A DNA stretch of 64,000 nucleotides from an uncultured Verrucomicrobiae bacterium (GCA_963846775.1 CAWJXB010000006.1:1702990-1766989), one strand, 5' to 3'. Numbered from the stretch's first letter, positions 1,609 to 61,277 are shown. Numbers and translations: made by a program. The notes: a model not told the origin generated them from the letters alone.

Positions 1609-2781
1609 TTAACGTCCCGGCATCATCTCGAGCAAAACGCCTCTGAAATATTCCGTCTCGGGGATAGTCGGTAAAACCGGATGATCCAACGCTTGCTCGA
1701 AATGGCGTAATCTTCTGGCCGAGCGCCGAACATCGACCAGCGCGTCGGCAATGGTCTGCGAGAAGGCCGCATCGCTCACGTGATGTGAGCAGGAAAAAGT
1801 CGCGAGCAATCCGTCTTTCGACAGCAGCTTGAATGCGCGCACGTGTAACTCGCGATAGCCGCGCAAGGCATCGCGCAATCCGCTCTTGGTTTTCGTAAAC
1901 GATGGCGGATCAAGCACAATCAAATCGTATTGCGCTTCTGCTTTACCGGCATCGCGCAGAAACTGAAATACGTCCGCCTCGGTCCAGCGCACATTTGTTT
2001 TGTTACGCTCGGCGTTCCGTTTCGCCGCGGACAGATTATGGGAGCTTTCATCAACCGCCGTCACCTCCGCCGCGCTCGCGCGCGCGCAGATGAGCGCAAA
2101 CGCGCCTTGATTTGTGAAACAATCGAGCACGCGGCGGCCTTTCGCGTGTTGGGCCACGATCTCGTAATTTTGCCGTTGATCGAGATAGAAACCGGTCTTG
2201 TGTCCGCGCAGAAGATCGACCGCGAACTTTGCGCCGGCGATGTCGATCTCGATTAGCGCCGACGGCGCCGCGCTTGCCAAGACGCCAGTGCGCAATTCTA
2301 ATCCTTCGGCTTTTCGAATTGGCGCATCGTTGCGCTCGATGATTGTGACCTTCCCGAAAAGATCGACAATGGCCTCGGCGATCAAATTCTTCCGCAAATC
2401 CATTGCCAGGGTCAGCGTTTGTAAAACAAGATGATCGCCGTAACAATCGAGGACTACGCCGGGCAGACCGTCGCTCTCGCTCCAGACGATACGTCGCAAT
2501 TTAGGATCGACACCGCGCCGGTCGCGATACTCCGACGCCTGGGCAATCCGGCGCTTGAAAAAATCGAGATCGAGGTCCTGCTTTCGCCGCGAAAACCGGC
2601 GCGCCACGATCTGTGATTTCGAATTGTAAATCGCGCTTCCGATCAAATGATCGCGTCCGTCCTTGAGAGAAATCACATCGCCATCAGCCGGTTTGCCGAA
2701 AACTTTCAGCACCTCGCTGGAAAAAACCCAGTCGTGTCCGTGCAAAATTTGCGCGCGGGGTTTGACGACGAGTCCAGCCAT
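1609..2781 (-). CDS. rlmI: SAM-dependent 23S rRNA (cytosine-C5) methyltransferase, RlmI-like (PUA + class I MTase)
   Basis: N-terminal PUA-like region, central DPPSF and C-terminal class I MTase motifs, ~390 aa. Start set at the internal ATG (MAGLVVKP). Confidence 0.75.
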   Translation of the reverse strand: MAGLVVKPRAQILHGHDWVFSSEVLKVFGKPADGDVISLKDGRDHLIGSAIYNSKSQIVARRFSRRKQDLDLDFFKRRIAQASEYRDRRGVDPKLRRIVWSESDGLPGVVLDCYGDHLVLQTLTLAMDLRKNLIAEAIVDLFGKVTIIERNDAPIRKAEGLELRTGVLASAAPSALIEIDIAGAKFAVDLLRGHKTGFYLDQRQNYEIVAQHAKGRRVLDCFTNQGAFALICARASAAEVTAVDESSHNLSAAKRNAERNKTNVRWTEADVFQFLRDAGKAEAQYDLIVLDPPSFTKTKSGLRDALRGYRELHVRAFKLLSKDGLLATFSCSHHVSDAAFSQTIADALVDVRRSARRLRHFEQALDHPVLPTIPETEYFRGVLLEMMPGR

Positions 2782-2788
2782 ATTTAGA

Positions 2789-2850
2789 AAGTGAGAAGTG
2801 AGAAGTGAATGGTGAGAAGATAATCCCCAACCACGTCTCACTTCTCACTA
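2789..2850. repeat. tandem heptamer array (GTGAGAA x4) with inverted partner forming hairpin between divergent rlmI and purC starts
   Basis: gtgagaa gtgagaa gtgaatg gtgagaa ... tctcacttctcac; period 7, arms complementary. Confidence 0.7.
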
Positions 2851-2863
2851 ATCACAGCCGTTT

Positions 2864-3808
2864 ATGCAAACCTCGCCTCAAAGCTCAATCGATCTGACCG
2901 GAATCAAAAAACTGCGCAGCGGCAAGGTGCGCGAAGTTTTCGATCTCGGCGACACGCTTCTGTTCGTTGTGACCGACCGGCTTTCGGCGTTTGACGTGAT
3001 TTTATCCGACCCTATCCCGCACAAGGGCGCGGTGTTGAATCAGCTCTCCGCCTTCTGGTTCAAACGCTTCGGCAACTCCGACAGCCGTCGCGAGCAGGGC
3101 ATCGACAATCATTTTGTCACGGCAAACTTTGACGAATTTCCGGAGAATTTGCAGCCGTTCCGCGATCAACTTGCCGGACGTTCGATGATTGTCCGTAAAA
3201 CAAGACCGCTCCCGGTCGAATGTGTGGTGCGCGGTTATCTGGCCGGCTCCGGCTGGAAGGAATATCAGGAATCGCAAAGCGTATGCGGAATCAAATTGCC
3301 GGCGGGTTTGCAGCTCGCCTCGAAGTTACCGGAACCGATTTTCACGCCTGCGACCAAGGCCGAGGAAGGCCACGACGAAAACATCGACATGAAACGTTGC
3401 GCGCAGATTCTCGGCCCAAAAACGGCAGAGCAAGTGAAGAAGCTCAGTCTCGAGATTTACTCGCGCGGGCGGGATCACGCGGCGCAGCACGGGATCATCG
3501 TGGCCGATACGAAATTCGAATTCGGACAGATCGATCCGCCGCAGGACGGATCCGCCGTGGCGAACAATTGCTTGCTGTTGATTGACGAATGTCTTACGCC
3601 GGATTCGTCGCGGTTTTGGCCGGCTGATCAATATGTCGTCGGCCAAAGCCCGCCCAGTTTCGATAAACAATTTGTCCGCGACTATCTGGAAACGCTCGAT
3701 TGGGACAAAACCCCGCCCGCGCCGAAGTTGCCCGCCGACGTGATCGCGCGCACGGCAGCGAAGTATGTCGAAGCGTTCGAGCGATTGACTGGTGAGAGGT
3801 TAAGGTAG
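2864..3808 (+). CDS. purC: phosphoribosylaminoimidazole-succinocarboxamide (SAICAR) synthase
   Basis: Long-form PurC signatures (GKVREVFD, VVTDRLSAFDV, ADTKFEFG), 314 aa. Confidence 0.9.
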   Translation: MQTSPQSSIDLTGIKKLRSGKVREVFDLGDTLLFVVTDRLSAFDVILSDPIPHKGAVLNQLSAFWFKRFGNSDSRREQGIDNHFVTANFDEFPENLQPFRDQLAGRSMIVRKTRPLPVECVVRGYLAGSGWKEYQESQSVCGIKLPAGLQLASKLPEPIFTPATKAEEGHDENIDMKRCAQILGPKTAEQVKKLSLEIYSRGRDHAAQHGIIVADTKFEFGQIDPPQDGSAVANNCLLLIDECLTPDSSRFWPADQYVVGQSPPSFDKQFVRDYLETLDWDKTPPAPKLPADVIARTAAKYVEAFERLTGERLR

Positions 3809-3840
3809 GGCGCGCGGGCACTGCTTTTCCCAAGAACACG

Positions 3841-3866
3841 GCGACGGTCACAGACCGCCGCTACAG
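3841..3866. repeat. REP-like palindromic unit (forward), overlapping mdh stop
   Basis: gcgacggtcacagaccgccgCTAcag. The CTA is the reverse complement of the mdh TAG stop. Confidence 0.7.
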
Positions 3867-4841
3867 TAAGTCACTCACGAGCGATTTTTCTTCCTTCAAT
3901 TCGGCGACCGTCTTGTCGATCTTGTCGCGGCTGAATTCATTGATCGGGACACCTTGGACGATTTGCCATTTGCCGCCGTGGACGCGCACGGGAAACGATG
4001 AAATCAATCCTCGATCGACATGGTAACTTCCATCCGAACAAACGGCGACGCTATGCCAATCGTCACCGGCGGTGTCCTCCGTTAACGAGCGAACGCTGCC
4101 GATGACAGCGTTTGCGGCGGAAGCGGCCGAGGAAAGCCCGCGCGCTTTGATGACAGCAGCACCGCGTTGTTGCACCGTGGCGATGAAATCTTCCTTTAAC
4201 CATTTCTCGTCGCCGATGATCTCGCTGGCCGGGCGATTGTCGATCTTGGCGTTGTAAAAATCAGGATACTGGGTGGAGGAATGATTGCCCCAGATCGTCA
4301 TGTTCGTGACACGCGTAATCTGGACGCCGGCCTTGTGCGCAAGCTGAGCGCGGGACCGGTTTTCATCCAGTCGCGTCATGGCAAACCAGCGATCGGTCGG
4401 AATTTCCTTTGCGTTGTTCATCGCAATCAGGCAATTCGTGTTGCACGGATTTCCTATGACGAGAACGCGCACATCGGCGGCGGCATTCTTTTGCATCGCC
4501 TGCCCCTGGCCGATGAAAATTTTGCCGTTGATGCCGAGCAAATCTTTCCGTTCCATGCCGGCCTTGCGCGGGACGCTGCCGACGAGCAAGGCCCAGTTAA
4601 TGTCGCGAAAGCCTTCGTCGAGATCGGCTGTCGGCACGATCGAGTGGAGCAGCGGAAAGGCACAATCGTGCAGTTCCATTACCACGCCTTCGAGCGCACC
4701 AAGCGCGGGCGGGATTTCGACCAGATGGAGCGAGACGGGCTGGTCCTGGCCAAACATTTCGCCCGAAGCGATCCGGAAAACCAGCGCATAACCAATGTGA
4801 CCGGCCGCGCCGGTGACAGCGACTTTGATGGGTGACTTCAT
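3861..4841 (-). CDS. mdh: malate dehydrogenase (NAD), LDH2-family
   Basis: N-terminal Rossmann motif [12 protein letters not shown], catalytic region IWGNHS, 326 aa. Confidence 0.9.
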
Positions 4842-4884
4842 GATTCAATTAGCCACAGGGTCTGCCTTGGGCAATCCGGAAGGA

Positions 4885-5003
4885 TCAATGACGAATGTCG
4901 AATGTCTAATGACGAAGAAATGACGAAATCCAAATGACGAAAGTGATTCCTCGCTGCCTTTCGTCATTCATGAATTCGGATTTTCTTCGTCCATCGTCAT
5001 TAC
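4885..5003. repeat. tandem heptamer/octamer array (AATGACG-type) with inverted partner; long imperfect hairpin between malQ stop and mdh start
   Basis: aatgacg aatgtcg aatgtct aatgacg aag aaatgacg aaatcc aaatgacg aaag | ctttcgtcattcatgaattcggattttcttcgtccatcgtcatt. Confidence 0.7.
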
Positions 5004-6691
5004 GCGCGTCCCGTTTTCTCCAGCAACTTGCGAATCAGCGCCATTCGTTTTCGTTCCGCTCGGCTGGCGCGCAACTGCGCAATCGAGCGGTGCATTCGAC
5101 GCGTCCAATTCCCCGAAGCAGCGGTGCCGGGCACGTTGAAGCGATACTTGCACGCGAGCAGATCGGTGATCATGACCGAGGCGATCCACGATTCGCTCCG
5201 AAACAGCGCTTCCATGATCCGCGGATAAAAATCGCGGCTGTAATCGATCGATTCGCCCTTCGGCTGGAATCCGGCAAACTCGGCGATTTTGTTGAGAGCG
5301 TCGATGGATTGCTCCGATGTCGATGTGGGGTGCTCAATCGCCTCTTCCCACAACTTGCGTAACGGTTTGTGATCGTGCGTGGCGTAAGTCGCTACCGAGA
5401 CGCGATTGTATTCGCTCCCAGGGGTGACCCGGCCATGATACACTTCCCATTGCGGGATTTTGAATCCGGCGATTCCTAACGAGCGCAGACTGGGGCGGAC
5501 ATAATCGGGTACCGTCCCCAAATCTTCGCCAATTACCCGCGCGTCGCCCGACTCCTCCAGGACGGCGCGCAAATATTCTTCGCCTTCGCGCAAATTCGCG
5601 GCGCACTCTTCCGGATTGGAATCATTCCGCGGCGCAAAATGCGGGGCACGGCCGCCGGTCTTGGCCAACATCTCATTCCATTCCAGTGCCAGGAATTTTC
5701 GATTCTGCGATGGTCGCCACGGGAAAGCATAGATCCGATAAAAGCCGAGGACGTGATCGATCCGGAAAAGATGAAAAATGCGGCGGACAAAGCGGACCCG
5801 TTCCCGCCACCAATCGAAACGGCGCGTCCGCATCGCGTCCCAGCGATAAAGAGGGATGCCCCAGTTTTGTCCCCATTTTTGTGTAAACTTATCGTCTTTG
5901 AAGTATGGCTCCGGCGGCGCGCCGCCTGACCAGTCGAGCGCAAACTCGTCGTGCCGAGCAAAGACATCGGCGCTGTAGTAACTGATGCCGAACGGAATGT
6001 CGCCCATCAATGCCACACCGCGCTCTTCGGCGAACGCTTTGATCGCGCGCCACTGTTCGTGCGCGATCCATTGCACATAGCGAAAGAAATTCTCCCGCTT
6101 GGCAAATGCCGATTGTCGATCCAGCGGCAAATTGCATAACCACTCCCGCGCCGATCCCGGCGAGGGCGTCGGCCATCGGTCCCACGTTTCGTGCTCGCCA
6201 TTCTCTTCCATCAAGGCGCGGAACAGGGCGTAATGGTTCAGCCACGCCGCTTCTTTTTCACAAAATTTCCCGAAACTCGATTCGCGCTCAGCGCTCGCGT
6301 GGATGCAAAACCGGGCAAACGCGTTCTCCAACAACTGACGATTCAGTTTCCTGGTCTGCGGATATTTCACGGCCCCATGTCGAAGCGCCGCCAGATCGAA
6401 AGTCGTTAGGGTCGCAGAAAAGTCCTCCGCGCTCAAATCTTCCGGGCTGCCTGGCGCTAGATAAATCGTCGTTGGCTCGATCGCCATCGCACTAATGGCG
6501 TTGTAGGGACTGTTGTCACCTCCGATTTCATTGATCGGCAGAAGTTGCACCAGCTTGAACCCGGCGTCGGCTGCCCACTCGATGAATTGCCGCAGCGCCT
6601 CGGTGTCGCCGACTCCAAGATCGTCATCACGGCGCAACGCAAACAACGGCGCCAGAACACCGGCGATTTTCTTTTCGTGGGGGAGATCCAT
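5000..6691 (-). CDS. malQ: 4-alpha-glucanotransferase (amylomaltase, GH77)
   Basis: 563 aa with GH77 catalytic-region motifs (FRIDHVLGF, IGEDLG, ATHDH). Confidence 0.88.
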   Translation of the reverse strand: MDLPHEKKIAGVLAPLFALRRDDDLGVGDTEALRQFIEWAADAGFKLVQLLPINEIGGDNSPYNAISAMAIEPTTIYLAPGSPEDLSAEDFSATLTTFDLAALRHGAVKYPQTRKLNRQLLENAFARFCIHASAERESSFGKFCEKEAAWLNHYALFRALMEENGEHETWDRWPTPSPGSAREWLCNLPLDRQSAFAKRENFFRYVQWIAHEQWRAIKAFAEERGVALMGDIPFGISYYSADVFARHDEFALDWSGGAPPEPYFKDDKFTQKWGQNWGIPLYRWDAMRTRRFDWWRERVRFVRRIFHLFRIDHVLGFYRIYAFPWRPSQNRKFLALEWNEMLAKTGGRAPHFAPRNDSNPEECAANLREGEEYLRAVLEESGDARVIGEDLGTVPDYVRPSLRSLGIAGFKIPQWEVYHGRVTPGSEYNRVSVATYATHDHKPLRKLWEEAIEHPTSTSEQSIDALNKIAEFAGFQPKGESIDYSRDFYPRIMEALFRSESWIASVMITDLLACKYRFNVPGTAASGNWTRRMHRSIAQLRASRAERKRMALIRKLLEKTGRA

Positions 6692-6698
6692 TTGGGAA

Positions 6699-6788
6699 GG
6701 TGAGAAGTGATCAGTGATCCGCGATCCGTGAACAGTTTACGCAGCGTTGCTTCATGCTGATCACTGATCACCGATCACAACTCTATTT
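6699..6788. repeat. tandem heptamer array (GTGAnnn x5) with inverted partner; hairpin immediately upstream of malQ start
   Basis: gtgagaa gtgatca gtgatcc gcgatcc gtgaaca ... gatcactgatcaccgatcac. Confidence 0.7.
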
Positions 6789-8151
6789 CGACTCCTGGCG
6801 TAGGCACAATCACCTCCGCGTTAGGCAATTCTGCGCTCAACGTCGCGCGCATCCATTCCACCGCCGACACATCGCCGTGCACGAGCACGACTTTTTGCGG
6901 CGACACCTTCTTCGCGTACGCAATCAACGTCTCGCGCGAGGCGTGGGCGCTGAATTGGAACTGCTTCAAATTGCACCGGACGTGCTGGGGCGCTTCATCT
7001 GGATCGAGCTGAACTTCGCTCCCCGGCGCGGCATCGCGCAGCAATCCCGCCGGAGATTCCGGATCGGCGTAGCCGACAAAAAAGATCGACTGCTGCGGAT
7101 TCTCCACCAGGCGATGCGCGAAAATGTTTGAGAGCGTTTTGGGCGTCATCATTCCGCTGGAGAGCGCATAGACGCGGCCCGGACGCGGCGCCGCGTCGTG
7201 AATCGTTGCGCCATTCAACACGAACGGGGCCATATCATCCATCAACTGCAGACGCGGCAATTGCCTGCGGCTCATTCCGGCGCGGCGATCGTAAATCTTG
7301 GTCATCTTCGAGCTCAAACCTCCGATATAAATCGGAAAATCCCGCTGCAACTGGTCGCGCCTAAATTTGCCAAGCATAGCCAGAACTTCCTGCGTTTTGC
7401 CTAAGGCGAAGACCGGGATGAGCGCGCAGCCACCACCCTGGAAAGCGTCCTCGATCGCTGCGGCCAGAAGGCGTTCTTCGGCAGCGCGCGTCCAATCAGC
7501 CGGTTGAGCGTGATCGCCGCGGGTGCATTCCATGATCAGAATGTCGATCCCTTCGTCGGGAAAGACCGCCGCTTGCATGATCGTTTGATCGTCGAAGTTC
7601 ACATCGCCCGTGTAGAAAACCGTGCCACCTTCGCCGCGGAGCAGAATTCCAGTGGAACCGAGGACGTGACCAGCATCGTAGAGCTCGAAGGACAATGGGC
7701 CGGTCTCGTTCGGCGGGACGCGCTCGCCCGAAATCGAGAGGCGCTGCCGCATCGGACACGACTGCCAAAGATCTGACGCGCGATCGGTCTCACGATGGGT
7801 GAAGAGCGGATACAACATTGTGCCCAGCTCTTCGCGCTGGCGCATCATCACGTTGACGGAGTTATGCAGTAGCACATCGCCAATGTCGGCCGTGGCGTCG
7901 GTCATGAAGACGCGCGCACGCGGTTGCCGTCGCATCAGTACCGGTAACGTCCCGATGTGGTCCTGGTGCGCGTGCGAGATCAGGATCGCGTCAATTGGTC
8001 GATCCGCGATCGGTTTGAAATTTGGTAGCGCATCTTCGCCGACGTTTTTTGGGTGCATCCCGCAATCGAGTACGATCCGGTGCCCCGCGATTTCCAGATA
8101 ATATGAGTTCGCGCCGATCTCAGTGTGCCGCGTCAGATTGATGAATTTCAA
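6775..8151 (-). CDS. MBL-fold metallo-hydrolase, beta-CASP family (RNA-metabolising nuclease-like)
   Basis: HxHxDH metallo-beta-lactamase motif (SHAHQDHIG) plus a beta-CASP-like C-terminal region, 458 aa. Confidence 0.75.
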   Translation of the reverse strand: MKFINLTRHTEIGANSYYLEIAGHRIVLDCGMHPKNVGEDALPNFKPIADRPIDAILISHAHQDHIGTLPVLMRRQPRARVFMTDATADIGDVLLHNSVNVMMRQREELGTMLYPLFTHRETDRASDLWQSCPMRQRLSISGERVPPNETGPLSFELYDAGHVLGSTGILLRGEGGTVFYTGDVNFDDQTIMQAAVFPDEGIDILIMECTRGDHAQPADWTRAAEERLLAAAIEDAFQGGGCALIPVFALGKTQEVLAMLGKFRRDQLQRDFPIYIGGLSSKMTKIYDRRAGMSRRQLPRLQLMDDMAPFVLNGATIHDAAPRPGRVYALSSGMMTPKTLSNIFAHRLVENPQQSIFFVGYADPESPAGLLRDAAPGSEVQLDPDEAPQHVRCNLKQFQFSAHASRETLIAYAKKVSPQKVVLVHGDVSAVEWMRATLSAELPNAEVIVPTPGVEIEL

Positions 8152-8183: not shown

Positions 8184-8250
8184 GTAGCGGCGGTCTGTGA
8201 CCGTCGCCATCTCTTGGAAAAAGTTTGCGACGCTCATAGAGCGCCGCTAC
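8184..8250. repeat. REP-like pair (inverted + forward unit with ~18-bp spacer)
   Basis: gtagcggcggtctgtgaccgtcgc ... tgcgacgctcatagagcgccgCTAca. The second unit supplies the dipeptidase stop codon. Confidence 0.7.
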
Positions 8251-22836: not shown

Positions 22837-22976
22837 CGAAACGCGTTCTGCGTTTTGCGTTAGTCGTTAGCGGATTGGAGAAAGTGATCGCGAAGGTCGC
22901 AGATGGAAATGGATTGTAGGGCAGGGCGCTCCGCCGGCCACGGCAGCCGACGCGGTTAGCCTACGAATTTGCTCCG

Positions 22977-52598: not shown

Positions 52599-52674
52599 GT
52601 AGCGGCGCGTCTATGACCGTCGCCATCTCTCAGCCCTCCAGTTTGCGACGGTCGCAGACTGCCGCTACAATCGC
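52599..52674. repeat. REP-like pair inserted in 5' leader of the PMT-like TPR gene
   Basis: gtagcggcgcgtctatgaccgtcgcc - 20-bp spacer - tgcgacggtcgcagactgccgctacaatcgc. Confidence 0.7.
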
Positions 52675-56692: not shown

Positions 56693-56725
56693 TTGCGACG
56701 GTCACAGACCGCCGCTACAATCGCC
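56693..56725. repeat. REP-like palindromic unit (forward)
   Basis: tgcgacggtcacagaccgccgctacaatcgcc; identical core to the 3841 copy. Confidence 0.7.
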
Positions 56726-58834: not shown

Positions 58835-59197
58835 GCGGCCGTTAACAGTTAGGACTGTTCAACGTCGAAGCGACACCTTGTTTCTCTTTTTTTGTCCCGG
58901 GGCAAGGTCAACTCACGGTCGAAATTCGAATCCTACATTGAAGTTGAGGACACGCGGAAGAGCGCGATAAGATTTTTTCCTTCATGCGTGTTCCAGGAAA
59001 GAATTTGTGGGGAGCCAGCAGGGTGATGGTGATTTGCCTGGCGGACCTTGCAGGCCCAGGGCTCGGGTCCGTTAGGCAAATGCTTTCTACTTGAACACGT
59101 TGTCATTCTGAGCGAAGCGAAGAATCTCTGATTGGTTCAGAGTGAGCCATGCCAAGACAATGACCAGAGATGTTTCTCCCGCGACTGCGGGATCAAC

Positions 59198-60232: not shown

Positions 60233-60282
60233 TGAACCGCCTAAAAATTGCGCCCGGCGCGCGAAGTCGTATAAAGCACGCA

Positions 60283-60834
60283 ATGCCGCATCACGCGCAA
60301 TCGTTTTTGTTGCTTAACCTGTCGATCCTGACAGGAACCGCGTTGGGTGGGTGCAGCGTCGCTCACGATGCTGCCTCCGTGACGTATCACGCTGCATCCG
60401 CAACGTACCATGCTGCATCCACAACGTATCATGCTGCATCCACAACGTACCACGCGGTCACTGTGCCGGTGCGAATCATTAGGCGGAACGTTGCCCATCG
60501 ACTGCCTCCCGACGCTCATGGGGAAAACACGACCACGAGCGTCGTGACCGAAACGGCCCCGACAACTCCGGATTCTTCGATCGCGACGACGCCTGCAACG
60601 CCCCGGAAGTCCGCCCCCCCGCAAAAGGCCGCGGTCTTCTCGAAGGCTAAAGCTTCGCCAACTCCAGGTGCCGTGCCGCGTGTGCAATTTCCAATCGCCG
60701 AGCGGGTTCCCGGCAAATCCGGATTGGTGATGAGCCCGTTCGATCCGGAAGCAAGATATGTCGACGTCAGCGGTTACGCCTCCGGCAGTAAAGTGAAGGA
60801 TCCGTGGACGGAGAAGATTTTCATTGTGCCGTAG
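60283..60834 (+). CDS. lipoprotein with four tandem (V/A/T)TYHAAS heptapeptide repeats and Thr/Pro-rich linker
   Basis: Signal peptide with lipobox-like LGGC. Repeats encoded by four 21-bp tandem units (60380-60463). Confidence 0.5.
   Translation: MPHHAQSFLLLNLSILTGTALGGCSVAHDAASVTYHAASATYHAASTTYHAASTTYHAVTVPVRIIRRNVAHRLPPDAHGENTTTSVVTETAPTTPDSSIATTPATPRKSAPPQKAAVFSKAKASPTPGAVPRVQFPIAERVPGKSGLVMSPFDPEARYVDVSGYASGSKVKDPWTEKIFIVP
60380..60463 (+). repeat. 4 x 21-bp in-frame tandem repeat inside lipoprotein gene
   Basis: gtgacgtatcacgctgcatcc / gcaacgtaccatgctgcatcc / acaacgtatcatgctgcatcc / acaacgtaccacgcggtcact. Confidence 0.8.
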
Positions 60835-60904
60835 ACGCTCCTTGAGGACTTGACCGGTTTAACCGGTCAAGTCTAACGACTTCGCGTAACAGTTGACCCG
60901 GGCC

Positions 60905-61129
60905 TTATGGGTCTTGTGCGTCTTTGGTCCGCTTACGCGCTTGTTCGGCGACTTCGCGAGCGCGATCGATGGAATGTTTAGCCCAGTCGTGCTCGGACAC
61001 CTGGCGGGGCGGTGCAGGCGTCACAACCGATGCATGCTCGTTTGGCACCGGAGCGGTTTCGCTGTTTTTCTGCCAGAGATAAAGAATGCCCAAGCCTGCG
61101 ATAATGAGGAAGGGCAAGTAACGCCGCAT
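60905..61129 (-). CDS. small membrane-anchored hypothetical protein
   Basis: 74 aa with one N-terminal TM helix. Confidence 0.35.
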   Translation of the reverse strand: MRRYLPFLIIAGLGILYLWQKNSETAPVPNEHASVVTPAPPRQVSEHDWAKHSIDRAREVAEQARKRTKDAQDP

Positions 61130-61277
61130 GCTTTTTATTCAGCAGATCATGAGCCAGCAGGGCGCGCCGGCTGAGAATTTCCGCGGTCCGACCGAACCTC
61201 GGGAGCGCGCATAAAAAAGTCATTCTCTTGGGTTCGGCAAGCGCGCCGAACACGAACACGGTTACTACCTTCTCTTG

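Follow-up and report, generated by a model that had tools for sequence, protein, structure and literature searches.

Between malQ and mdh, the window analysed here (the whole 64,000-nt stretch of DNA from an uncultured Verrucomicrobiae bacterium) carries a 158-nt spacer in which an array of heptameric words is mirrored by its own complement, raising the question of whether such an element serves the two genes that it separates. A sequence-only reading had described six AATGNCN words with a spacing of 7, 7, 7, 11 and 14, mirrored in a hairpin with one arm ending at the malQ stop codon, and had proposed that the hairpin acts as a terminator or insulator for malQ and as a structured leader for mdh. 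Its statements about the sequence were all verified. The words on the plus strand of the element (4887–5002) are AATGACG at 4887, AATGTCG at 4894, AATGTCT at 4901 and AATGACG at 4908, 4919 and 4933, and they are mirrored by the CGTCATT-type words CTTTCGTCATT (4958–4968), TTCGGATT (4975–4982), TTCGTCC (4986–4992) and ATCGTCATT (4993–5001). The malQ TAA is indeed the outermost part of the stem. The hairpin itself was thus borne out, but its arms, put at about 45 bp, are unequal (57 and 45 nt) and form ≈35 base pairs.

The element is intergenic and consists of tandem 7-nt units in non-coding DNA, as expected of a heptameric simple sequence repeat (SSR). Part of the mdh-proximal arm (4887–4927) was scored by TRF as 6.3 copies of period 7. 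The inverted repeats found between the two arms (I1–I9) show that a reverse-complement array lies nearby in convergent orientation, the arrangement of a heptamer pair. The hairpin starts at the malQ stop codon and ends 12 nt short of a promoter-like pair of mdh. Since three independent assemblies (L081–L083) match the spacer at every base, an assembly artefact is excluded. Coordinates are collected in Table 1.

Table 1. Features of the malQ–mdh spacer, its neighbors and other repeat families (window positions unless a locus is named).
Feature	Position	Strand	Remarks
malQ	5000–6691	−	GH77 4-alpha-glucanotransferase; gene call confirmed
mdh	3861–4841	−	Ldh/Mdh family; gene call confirmed
malQ stop codon TAA	5000–5002	−	outermost hairpin base pairs (TAATGACG)
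malQ-proximal arm	4958–5002	−	5′ arm of sense RNA
Loop, 14 nt	4944–4957	−	sense strand GCAGCGAGGAAUCA; from folds and alignment A1
mdh-proximal arm	4887–4943	−	3′ arm of sense RNA, UUCGUCAUU-type array; six AATGNCN plus AAAG on + strand
Linker, 12 nt	4875–4886	−	sense GATCCTTCCGGA; from last word to −35-like hexamer
mdh promoter-like pair	4846–4874	−	−35-like TTGCCC 4869–4874, 17-nt spacer, −10-like TAATTG 4846–4851
AAGTGAG/CTCACTT sibling	2789–2850		fills spacer between divergent purC (ATG 2864) and methyltransferase
AGTGATC/GATCACT sibling	6699–6788		from beta-CASP stop (6775–6777) to ≈10 nt before malQ ATG
CACAGAT/CACGGAT family, examples	L003 2696–2800; L038 3897–3992; L064 3912–3993		
GTAG REP copies	826–845; 3845–3864; 8184–8203 + 8231–8250; 52649–52668; 56699–56718		8184–8203 and 8231–8250 form an inverted pair
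GTCATTC(T/C)GAGCGAAGCGA(A/G)GAATCTC family	59100–59131		also in spacers of L009, L032, L040, L042; L092

The spacer folds into an imperfect hairpin of ≈117 nt. The minimum free energy of 4842–5010 was −54.3 kcal/mol for the minus strand and −54.5 kcal/mol for the plus strand, compared to an average of −42 kcal/mol for shuffled sequences (z = −3.0 and −3.3, respectively). The 9-mer AATGACGAA occurs five times in the window, always within the element, where ≈1.06 copies would be expected window-wide. Four loci with a period of 7 were found in the window, versus zero or one for periods of 5, 6, 8 and 9, and three of the four are hairpins (4887–5002, 2789–2850 and 6699–6788), clustered within 4 kb. 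(The other, at 22843–22870, is a short direct repeat past a gene end and has no hairpin.) A detector for word arrays with a mirror, defined as at least two tandem words plus at least two mirrored words, returned two hits in the window and 28 in related loci totalling 652 kb, with no hit in shuffled sequences.

The two sibling hairpins share the architecture of the malQ–mdh element and use different words, as had been noted. That at 2789–2850 separates divergent gene starts, a setting that does not call for a terminator. (Judging by relatives, the methyltransferase starts at ATG 2781–2783, giving 390 aa, versus GTG 2841 in the ORF list.) At both sibling spacers, the word family differs among strains whose flanking proteins are 95–99% identical. 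In some 95% strains (L087 and L089/90), the corresponding site is occupied by a hairpin of AACGCTC words, and both sibling spacers display further 7-nt indels among relatives. In L081, a 248-nt CACAGAT element (1477–1724) is found where the window has its AGTGATC hairpin. The adjacent beta-CASP protein is identical to that of the window at 454 of 458 positions, and the gene ends beside the spacer have diverged, so the whole spacer was apparently imported by recombination, not by insertion. At the 6699–6788 site, the loop was observed to be more conserved than the arms.

A role in terminating or insulating malQ found no support. Intrinsic terminators were scanned for in 2600–7000 as a short GC-rich stem with a loop of 3–8 nt and at least five U within 8 nt after the stem, and no U-tract terminator was present at 4842–5003. 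The only terminator-like site near mdh is a GTAG-tagged REP hairpin after that gene (3841–3861), which fills the convergent mdh/purC spacer. Rfam yielded no match in the whole window at the gathering score; with E-values up to 5, only chance-level miRNA- and snoRNA-like matches on low-complexity hairpins were listed for 2700–6900. Among 27 elements located between co-oriented genes, the sense strand was the more stable in 13 and the antisense strand in 14 (Wilcoxon p = 0.64), and there was no excess of G·U pairs on the sense strand. The structure thus bears no mark of an RNA selected on one strand, and, apart from one compensatory pair (see below), the covariation, single-strand preference and curated family expected of a structured cis-regulatory RNA were not found for the element.

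The proposed structured leader for mdh conflicts with the promoter-like pair that lies between the hairpin and the mdh ATG (4839–4841). AATC separates TAATTG from this codon, i.e., the −10-like hexamer ends 4 nt before it. Both hexamers are conserved in alignment A1, and the form TTGCyC ... GGCTAA(A/T) is kept across many Chthoniobacterales. Nearly all related loci contain a ...GTGGCTAA(A/T)... motif 4–8 nt before the mdh ATG, and where the unique tail is longer, this motif is preceded by TTGCyC at a distance of 17 nt. The 12-nt linker is identical at 10 of 12 positions in the distant ortholog L006. A consensus promoter scan listed nothing at the element, and a simple sigma-70 scan did not list TTGCCC-17-TAATTG, because its −10 hexamer is without the final T. 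We infer that this pair is the working promoter of mdh. A putative −10 hexamer so close to the ATG would place the transcription start at or next to the ATG, and if the pair is the promoter, the mdh mRNA would be leaderless or nearly so, with the hairpin upstream of the promoter. An RNA containing mdh would then include the hairpin only if transcription read through from malQ. Most of the mdh transcription is probably driven by this promoter, just downstream of the hairpin. The scarcity of Shine-Dalgarno-like motifs, present within 18 nt of the start in only 12 of the 52 called genes in the window, fits a leaderless or near-leaderless mdh mRNA, and the sequences suggest that leaderless or Shine-Dalgarno-independent initiation may be frequent in this lineage. 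In several genes of the window, A/T-rich boxes of the TAA(A/T) type were seen a few nucleotides before the ATG.

The mdh protein places the window in the Verrucomicrobiota, within the Chthoniobacterales and next to Ca. Udaeobacter MAGs, with a best genome match of 87% amino acid identity. The gene order casp–malQ–mdh is preserved in most of 80 related loci, across which the length of the malQ–mdh spacer ranges from 0 to 456 nt. The same AATGACG word occupies this spacer in L006, in which mdh has 84% amino acid identity. Many other loci have a hairpin made from another word, most commonly CACAGAT/CACGGAT with a 10–11-nt period; L055 has GAGAGTTGA words and L063 has CTCCAAG words. About a dozen spacers (e.g., those of L010, L036, L053, L056, L057 and L061) measure only 0–40 nt and have no hairpin. 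In some genomes malQ and mdh abut, which indicates that the gene pair functions without any hairpin. With spacers shortened, filled with other words or empty in relatives, the element appears to be dispensable for the malQ–mdh arrangement. The intact orthologs in the close relatives of the window and in L006 all form long hairpins (−36 to −49 kcal/mol); several spacers are hairpin-less, and that of L087 is unfolded (see below).

Proteins 95–99% identical to the window mdh led to ten further contigs (L081–L090). The malQ–mdh spacers of the strains with 98–99% identity were identical to that of the window. The 95% strains contain the same element with the same loop core, ACGAGGAATC, and with arms that differ by whole units (alignment A1); at other loci, elements of the same word family have unrelated loops. 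The malQ-side arm is 14 nt, or two units, shorter in the window than in these relatives, and the mdh-side arm is without 21 nt in L084 and without 7 nt in L088 and L089. In three spacers of close relatives, the arm indels measured 7, 7, 7, 7, 14 and 21 nt, plus 6 and 47 nt, i.e., six of the eight that exceed 3 nt are multiples of 7. Such variation in unit number with retention of the gene context is typical of heptameric SSRs, and indels in multiples of 7 nt are the signature of slippage. The two arms gain and lose units independently of each other, which desynchronises their pairing.

It had also been argued that selection acts on structure and periodicity rather than on sequence. The conservation data point the other way. 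Between the window and the 95% strains, divergence was 0.19–0.28 at four-fold degenerate sites, 0.28 in the loop and 0.25 in the promoter-like tail, and 0.08–0.15 in the arms. Compared to L006, the arms are 72–80% identical and the tail about 50%. An arm divergence below the neutral level indicates that the AATGACG/CGTCATT words themselves are held constant, so that sequence is kept and not only structure. The same word also recurs at non-orthologous spacers and in at least 120 metagenome stretches. RNAalifold analysis of six orthologs gave 32 pairs, most of which never vary, and covariation, which had been suggested as a check, was limited to a single compensatory pair (G-C to A-U), a test constrained by register ambiguity inside the arrays. 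An apparent double change in L089 (G to A and C to T) was discarded, as the folds do not pair the positions concerned.

The 47-nt indel is found in L087, which has lost the entire malQ-side arm and with it the fold (−15 kcal/mol). Its remaining arm differs from the closest relatives at 12–13 of 43 positions, versus a divergence of 0.12–0.13 at four-fold sites, and the words in it are still valid variants of the family (TGTCATT, GGTCATT). This faster-than-neutral divergence after loss of the partner is the best hint in these alignments that pairing, or arm-to-arm correction, may matter.

Arrays of the AATGACG type are dispersed. They are found in the malQ–mdh spacer (in the close relatives of the window and L006), in the casp–malQ spacer (L026, L034, L039, L060 and L063) and after mdh (L013). 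In Chthoniobacterales loci, 39 of 58 period-7 arrays are accompanied by a mirror array (at least two reverse-complement words within 200 nt), and every word family keeps one fixed polarity. The pattern AATGACGAA-N10–40-TTCGTCATT was matched in at least 120 metagenome stretches, on contigs with 45–68% G+C from many different metagenome projects; no ortholog of the window was found on metagenome contigs. Most of the 80 matches inspected were multi-word mirrored arrays with unrelated loops, in which AATGACGAA is mixed with GCACGAA, AATCCGAA, AATGTCGAA and AAGGACGAA. (Taxonomic placement of a high-GC copy, L162, through its neighboring URO-D-family protein was uninformative.) One contig, L135, has reverse-complement copies of the AATGACG element, with flanks, at its two ends (101–186 and 4362–4460). 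Either these inverted copies bracket a 4.3-kb segment, or the palindrome led to a fold-back artefact in the assembly.

In the metagenome sample, the sides of the elements face 26 stops and 23 starts, giving no clean 5′ or 3′ rule, and two elements are intragenic. The elements abut stops, with a median distance of less than 10 nt, and the ORF upstream frequently terminates inside the first word or no more than 10 nt away from it. In 5–7 of 22 cases this word itself supplies the stop codon, TGA, mirroring the situation in the window, where the stop TAA is followed by TGACG. Distances to starts cannot be trusted, as every frame is open in CGTCATT arrays and the ORF caller extends genes into them. 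A first sample of gene contexts, dominated by orthologous sites, comprised 27 tandem, 10 divergent and one convergent spacer, and convergent spacers made up 1/38 and 1/16 of two samples, of which the first is not independent. This rarity hints at a non-random relation to gene starts. Two further ideas were set aside: stops in all frames of the inward-facing arm are a property of AATGACG and AAGTGAG but not of AACGCTC, and thus not a general rule, and the arms match −35 elements or anti-Shine-Dalgarno sequences too weakly to be mimics of either.

We consider that the element is one copy of a lineage-wide set of intergenic palindromic heptamer satellites maintained by slippage, rather than a dedicated regulator of malQ or mdh, and assign this reading a probability of about 0.6. 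In each satellite, tandem copies of a 7-nt word (AATGACG at this locus, with the core AATGAC/CGAA) would be followed by a short unrelated loop and the reverse-complement array. The arrays would grow and be homogenised by replication slippage in 7-nt steps, while the mirror arrangement could arise by inverted duplication or template switching. Expansion would proceed until functional sequence is reached, in this case the malQ stop and, at the opposite end, the mdh promoter. In the orientation found here, AATGACG places a TGA in all three frames within three units, which would close an upstream ORF at the edge of the array. RNA reading through from malQ would fold into the ≈117-nt imperfect stem-loop starting at the stop codon, and this may slow 3′ exonucleases or RNA polymerase, making a weak barrier or 3′-end protection on such RNA possible. 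Nothing that we found marks the element as a dedicated regulator of either gene, and on present evidence the best reading is that any effect of the stem-loop on the malQ 3′ end would be incidental and dispensable, although it could have been co-opted. Several observations count against a satellite. The low divergence of the arms and their persistence out to L006 argue against a passive one, and selection or a trans-acting recogniser fits these data at least equally well. The fast divergence of the lone arm in L087 suggests that pairing itself is maintained. The clustering of three elements within 4 kb and their rarity in convergent spacers likewise weigh against this interpretation.

A selected RNA hairpin that terminates or insulates malQ and controls mdh as a structured 5′ leader is unlikely in our estimation. 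It would explain why the hairpin starts at the malQ stop upstream of mdh, why the intact orthologs fold, and why some hairpin is present in most orthologous spacers, and both the compensatory change and the partnerless L087 arm are in its favor. It is at odds with the lack of a U-tract, the stability without strand bias, the independent changes in arm length, the conserved promoter-like pair before the mdh ATG, the sibling between divergent starts and the absence of an Rfam family, as well as with the hairpin-less spacers of 0–30 nt (L010, L036, L053, L056, L057, L061 and others). The words might instead be sites for a sequence-specific factor, binding DNA or single strands, with the mirrored arrays as a cooperative platform. 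Candidates would be transposase-like, nucleoid-associated or regulatory proteins, or OB-fold or cold-shock-type proteins covering ≈7 nt per monomer; binding of one CspB monomer per heptamer is a suggestion discussed for other repeats (PMC4679880). Conservation of the words above neutral, the same words in genomes sharing only ≈69% malQ identity, and the fixed polarity of each family would all be accounted for, the lack of strand asymmetry is expected of a duplex or symmetric target, and the related CACAGAT family has the 10–11-nt period of the helical repeat. A 7-bp period, however, is not helically phased, the spacing varies (7, 11 and 14), at least seven unrelated words with one architecture would call for many different factors, the neighborhood of the elements yielded no candidate protein, and the elements are dispensable at orthologous sites, so that we regard such a factor as quite improbable.

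Spread by transposition, as a MITE- or REP-like element whose arrays are terminal inverted repeats with transposase-binding sub-repeats, seems to us very unlikely. The arms do act as inverted repeats, members of the same family occur at non-orthologous spacers and come and go at orthologous ones, the CACAGAT family has a well-conserved terminal inverted repeat of ≈30 nt around variable internal sequence, and the genome also contains a classical GTAG REP family. Nevertheless, neither target-site duplications nor constant termini were seen among the copies, every copy has its own loop and unit order, slippage of units alters the arms in situ, and the replacement in L081, with its diverged flanking gene ends, points to recombinational import rather than insertion. 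A bolder variant, which we would call a long shot, is that the arrays of AATGACG/CGTCATT and of their sister word families, instead of being passive satellites, would be the cis sites of an undescribed recognition system of the Verrucomicrobiota. In one version, a heptamer-reading protein that binds single strands or duplex would keep the words constant from genus to genus, and the mirrored arrays would be switchable stem-loops that couple or uncouple neighboring genes, for example through factor- or temperature-dependent melting. Such a system would account for the conservation of the words above neutral, the fast divergence of the lone L087 arm, the single polarity of each family and the scarcity of arrays in convergent spacers.

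The element is a Verrucomicrobiota addition to the functionally unexplained intergenic heptamer arrays in inverted pairs. Its exact repeat strings were not found in the literature searched. Tandem heptanucleotides are familiar from the STRR sequences of cyanobacteria, of which several words occur per genome in non-coding spacers and vary greatly between close relatives. Mazel et al. reportedly described these heptanucleotide sequences in 1990. STRR are mainly direct arrays, in which mirror pairing is not a defining trait, and their words are unrelated to those of the mirrored element described here.

Three such heptanucleotides have been mentioned for Calothrix PCC 7601 (PMC4692102), and heptameric SSRs are the most abundant class of longer SSR in bacteria, a prevalence attributed to polymerase slippage (PMC4679880, PMC4692102). 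The closest match in architecture and evolutionary behavior is the GGGAATC array of Xanthomonas. Each Xanthomonas genome has ≈70 convergent inverted pairs that could form a stem-loop or cruciform, with gene context and paired type kept between species, variable length and unknown function (Rehm et al. 2015, PMC4692102). Like the malQ–mdh element, these arrays and the GGGGAYT arrays of Nostoc are tandem intergenic 7-nt units, convergent inverted pairs among them. Their words are G-rich and form G-quadruplexes, whereas AATGACG/CGTCATT has no G-runs, and neither this word nor AAGTGAG, AGTGATC and the others can form them. The Xanthomonas repeat also belongs to a different phylum, and in the Verrucomicrobiota several unrelated word families coexist, with about two thirds of the arrays mirrored.

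The TAACTGA repeats of marine Beggiatoaceae and cyanobacteria resemble the element as stop-containing heptamers in spacers, often adjoining a coding region, with a word shared by distant lineages. They are almost always direct, with one inverted in 170 (MacGregor 2015, PMC4679880), and are repeated 2–6 times in an orientation toward the downstream start codon, without a hairpin (PMC4679880). In REP/BIME sequences (GTAG- or CGTC-tagged), which measure 20–40 bp and occur in high copy number with near-constant sequence, a stem of 5–13 bp carries a short loop and the tag at the end is left unpaired (Di Nocera et al. 2013, PMC3733652). They share with the element the dispersed intergenic palindromes that often abut gene ends, for which 3′-end protection or termination has been proposed, and the CGTC of their tag is present inside every word of the element. 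REPs are not made of tandem words, however, while the element has tandem-word arms, measures 117 nt and has no terminal tag. An intrinsic terminator likewise places a stem-loop directly after the stop codon, but the stem of the element is AT-rich, ≈117 nt, imperfect, equally stable on both strands and not followed by a U-tract, and members of its class are also found between divergent starts.

Chthoniobacterales such as Ca. Udaeobacter rank with the most abundant bacteria of soils; their cultivation remains poor, and their non-coding sequences are all but uncharted. Mirrored heptamer arrays drawn from a few word families across genera fill many of the short spacers in these bacteria, which provides a practical rule for annotating such spacers and cautions against interpreting every hairpin as a custom-made riboswitch or terminator. 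The arrays change in 7-nt steps between strains and are possible strain-level markers. They also add a case without G-quadruplexes to the puzzle posed by the excess of heptameric repeats, frequently paired in inverted orientation, in the intergenic DNA of bacteria. Should it be true that a factor recognises the words, this would be a new regulatory or genome-maintenance system.

Other repeat families were observed in the window and its relatives. The CACAGAT/CACGGAT family has an inverted terminal block of ≈30 nt, TTAGCCACAGATgaaCACAGATtttCACAGAT, containing three words at a 10–11-nt period equal to the helical repeat. The outer end of this block, GTGGCTAA, coincides with the conserved box found just before mdh starts, and before malQ starts in several genomes. 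Within one element, the words are either all of the A or all of the G form, suggesting concerted change or two subfamilies. Six copies in the window, versus 0.01 expected, represent a REP-like family of GC-rich, GTAG-tagged hairpins, GTAGCGGCGGTCTGTGACCGTCGC. Another dispersed palindromic family has the core AGCGAGGAATC, which is also found in the loop of the malQ–mdh hairpin (4945–4955, minus strand). Finally, a 21/42-nt tandem repeat, ACGTACCACGCTGCATCCACA, is present in 3.5 copies at 60368–60455 (TRF score 113–128), inside a stretch of ≈1 kb (60233–61277) in which a codon-usage gene caller placed no gene; the repeat could be a coding region for heptapeptide repeats or could be non-coding.
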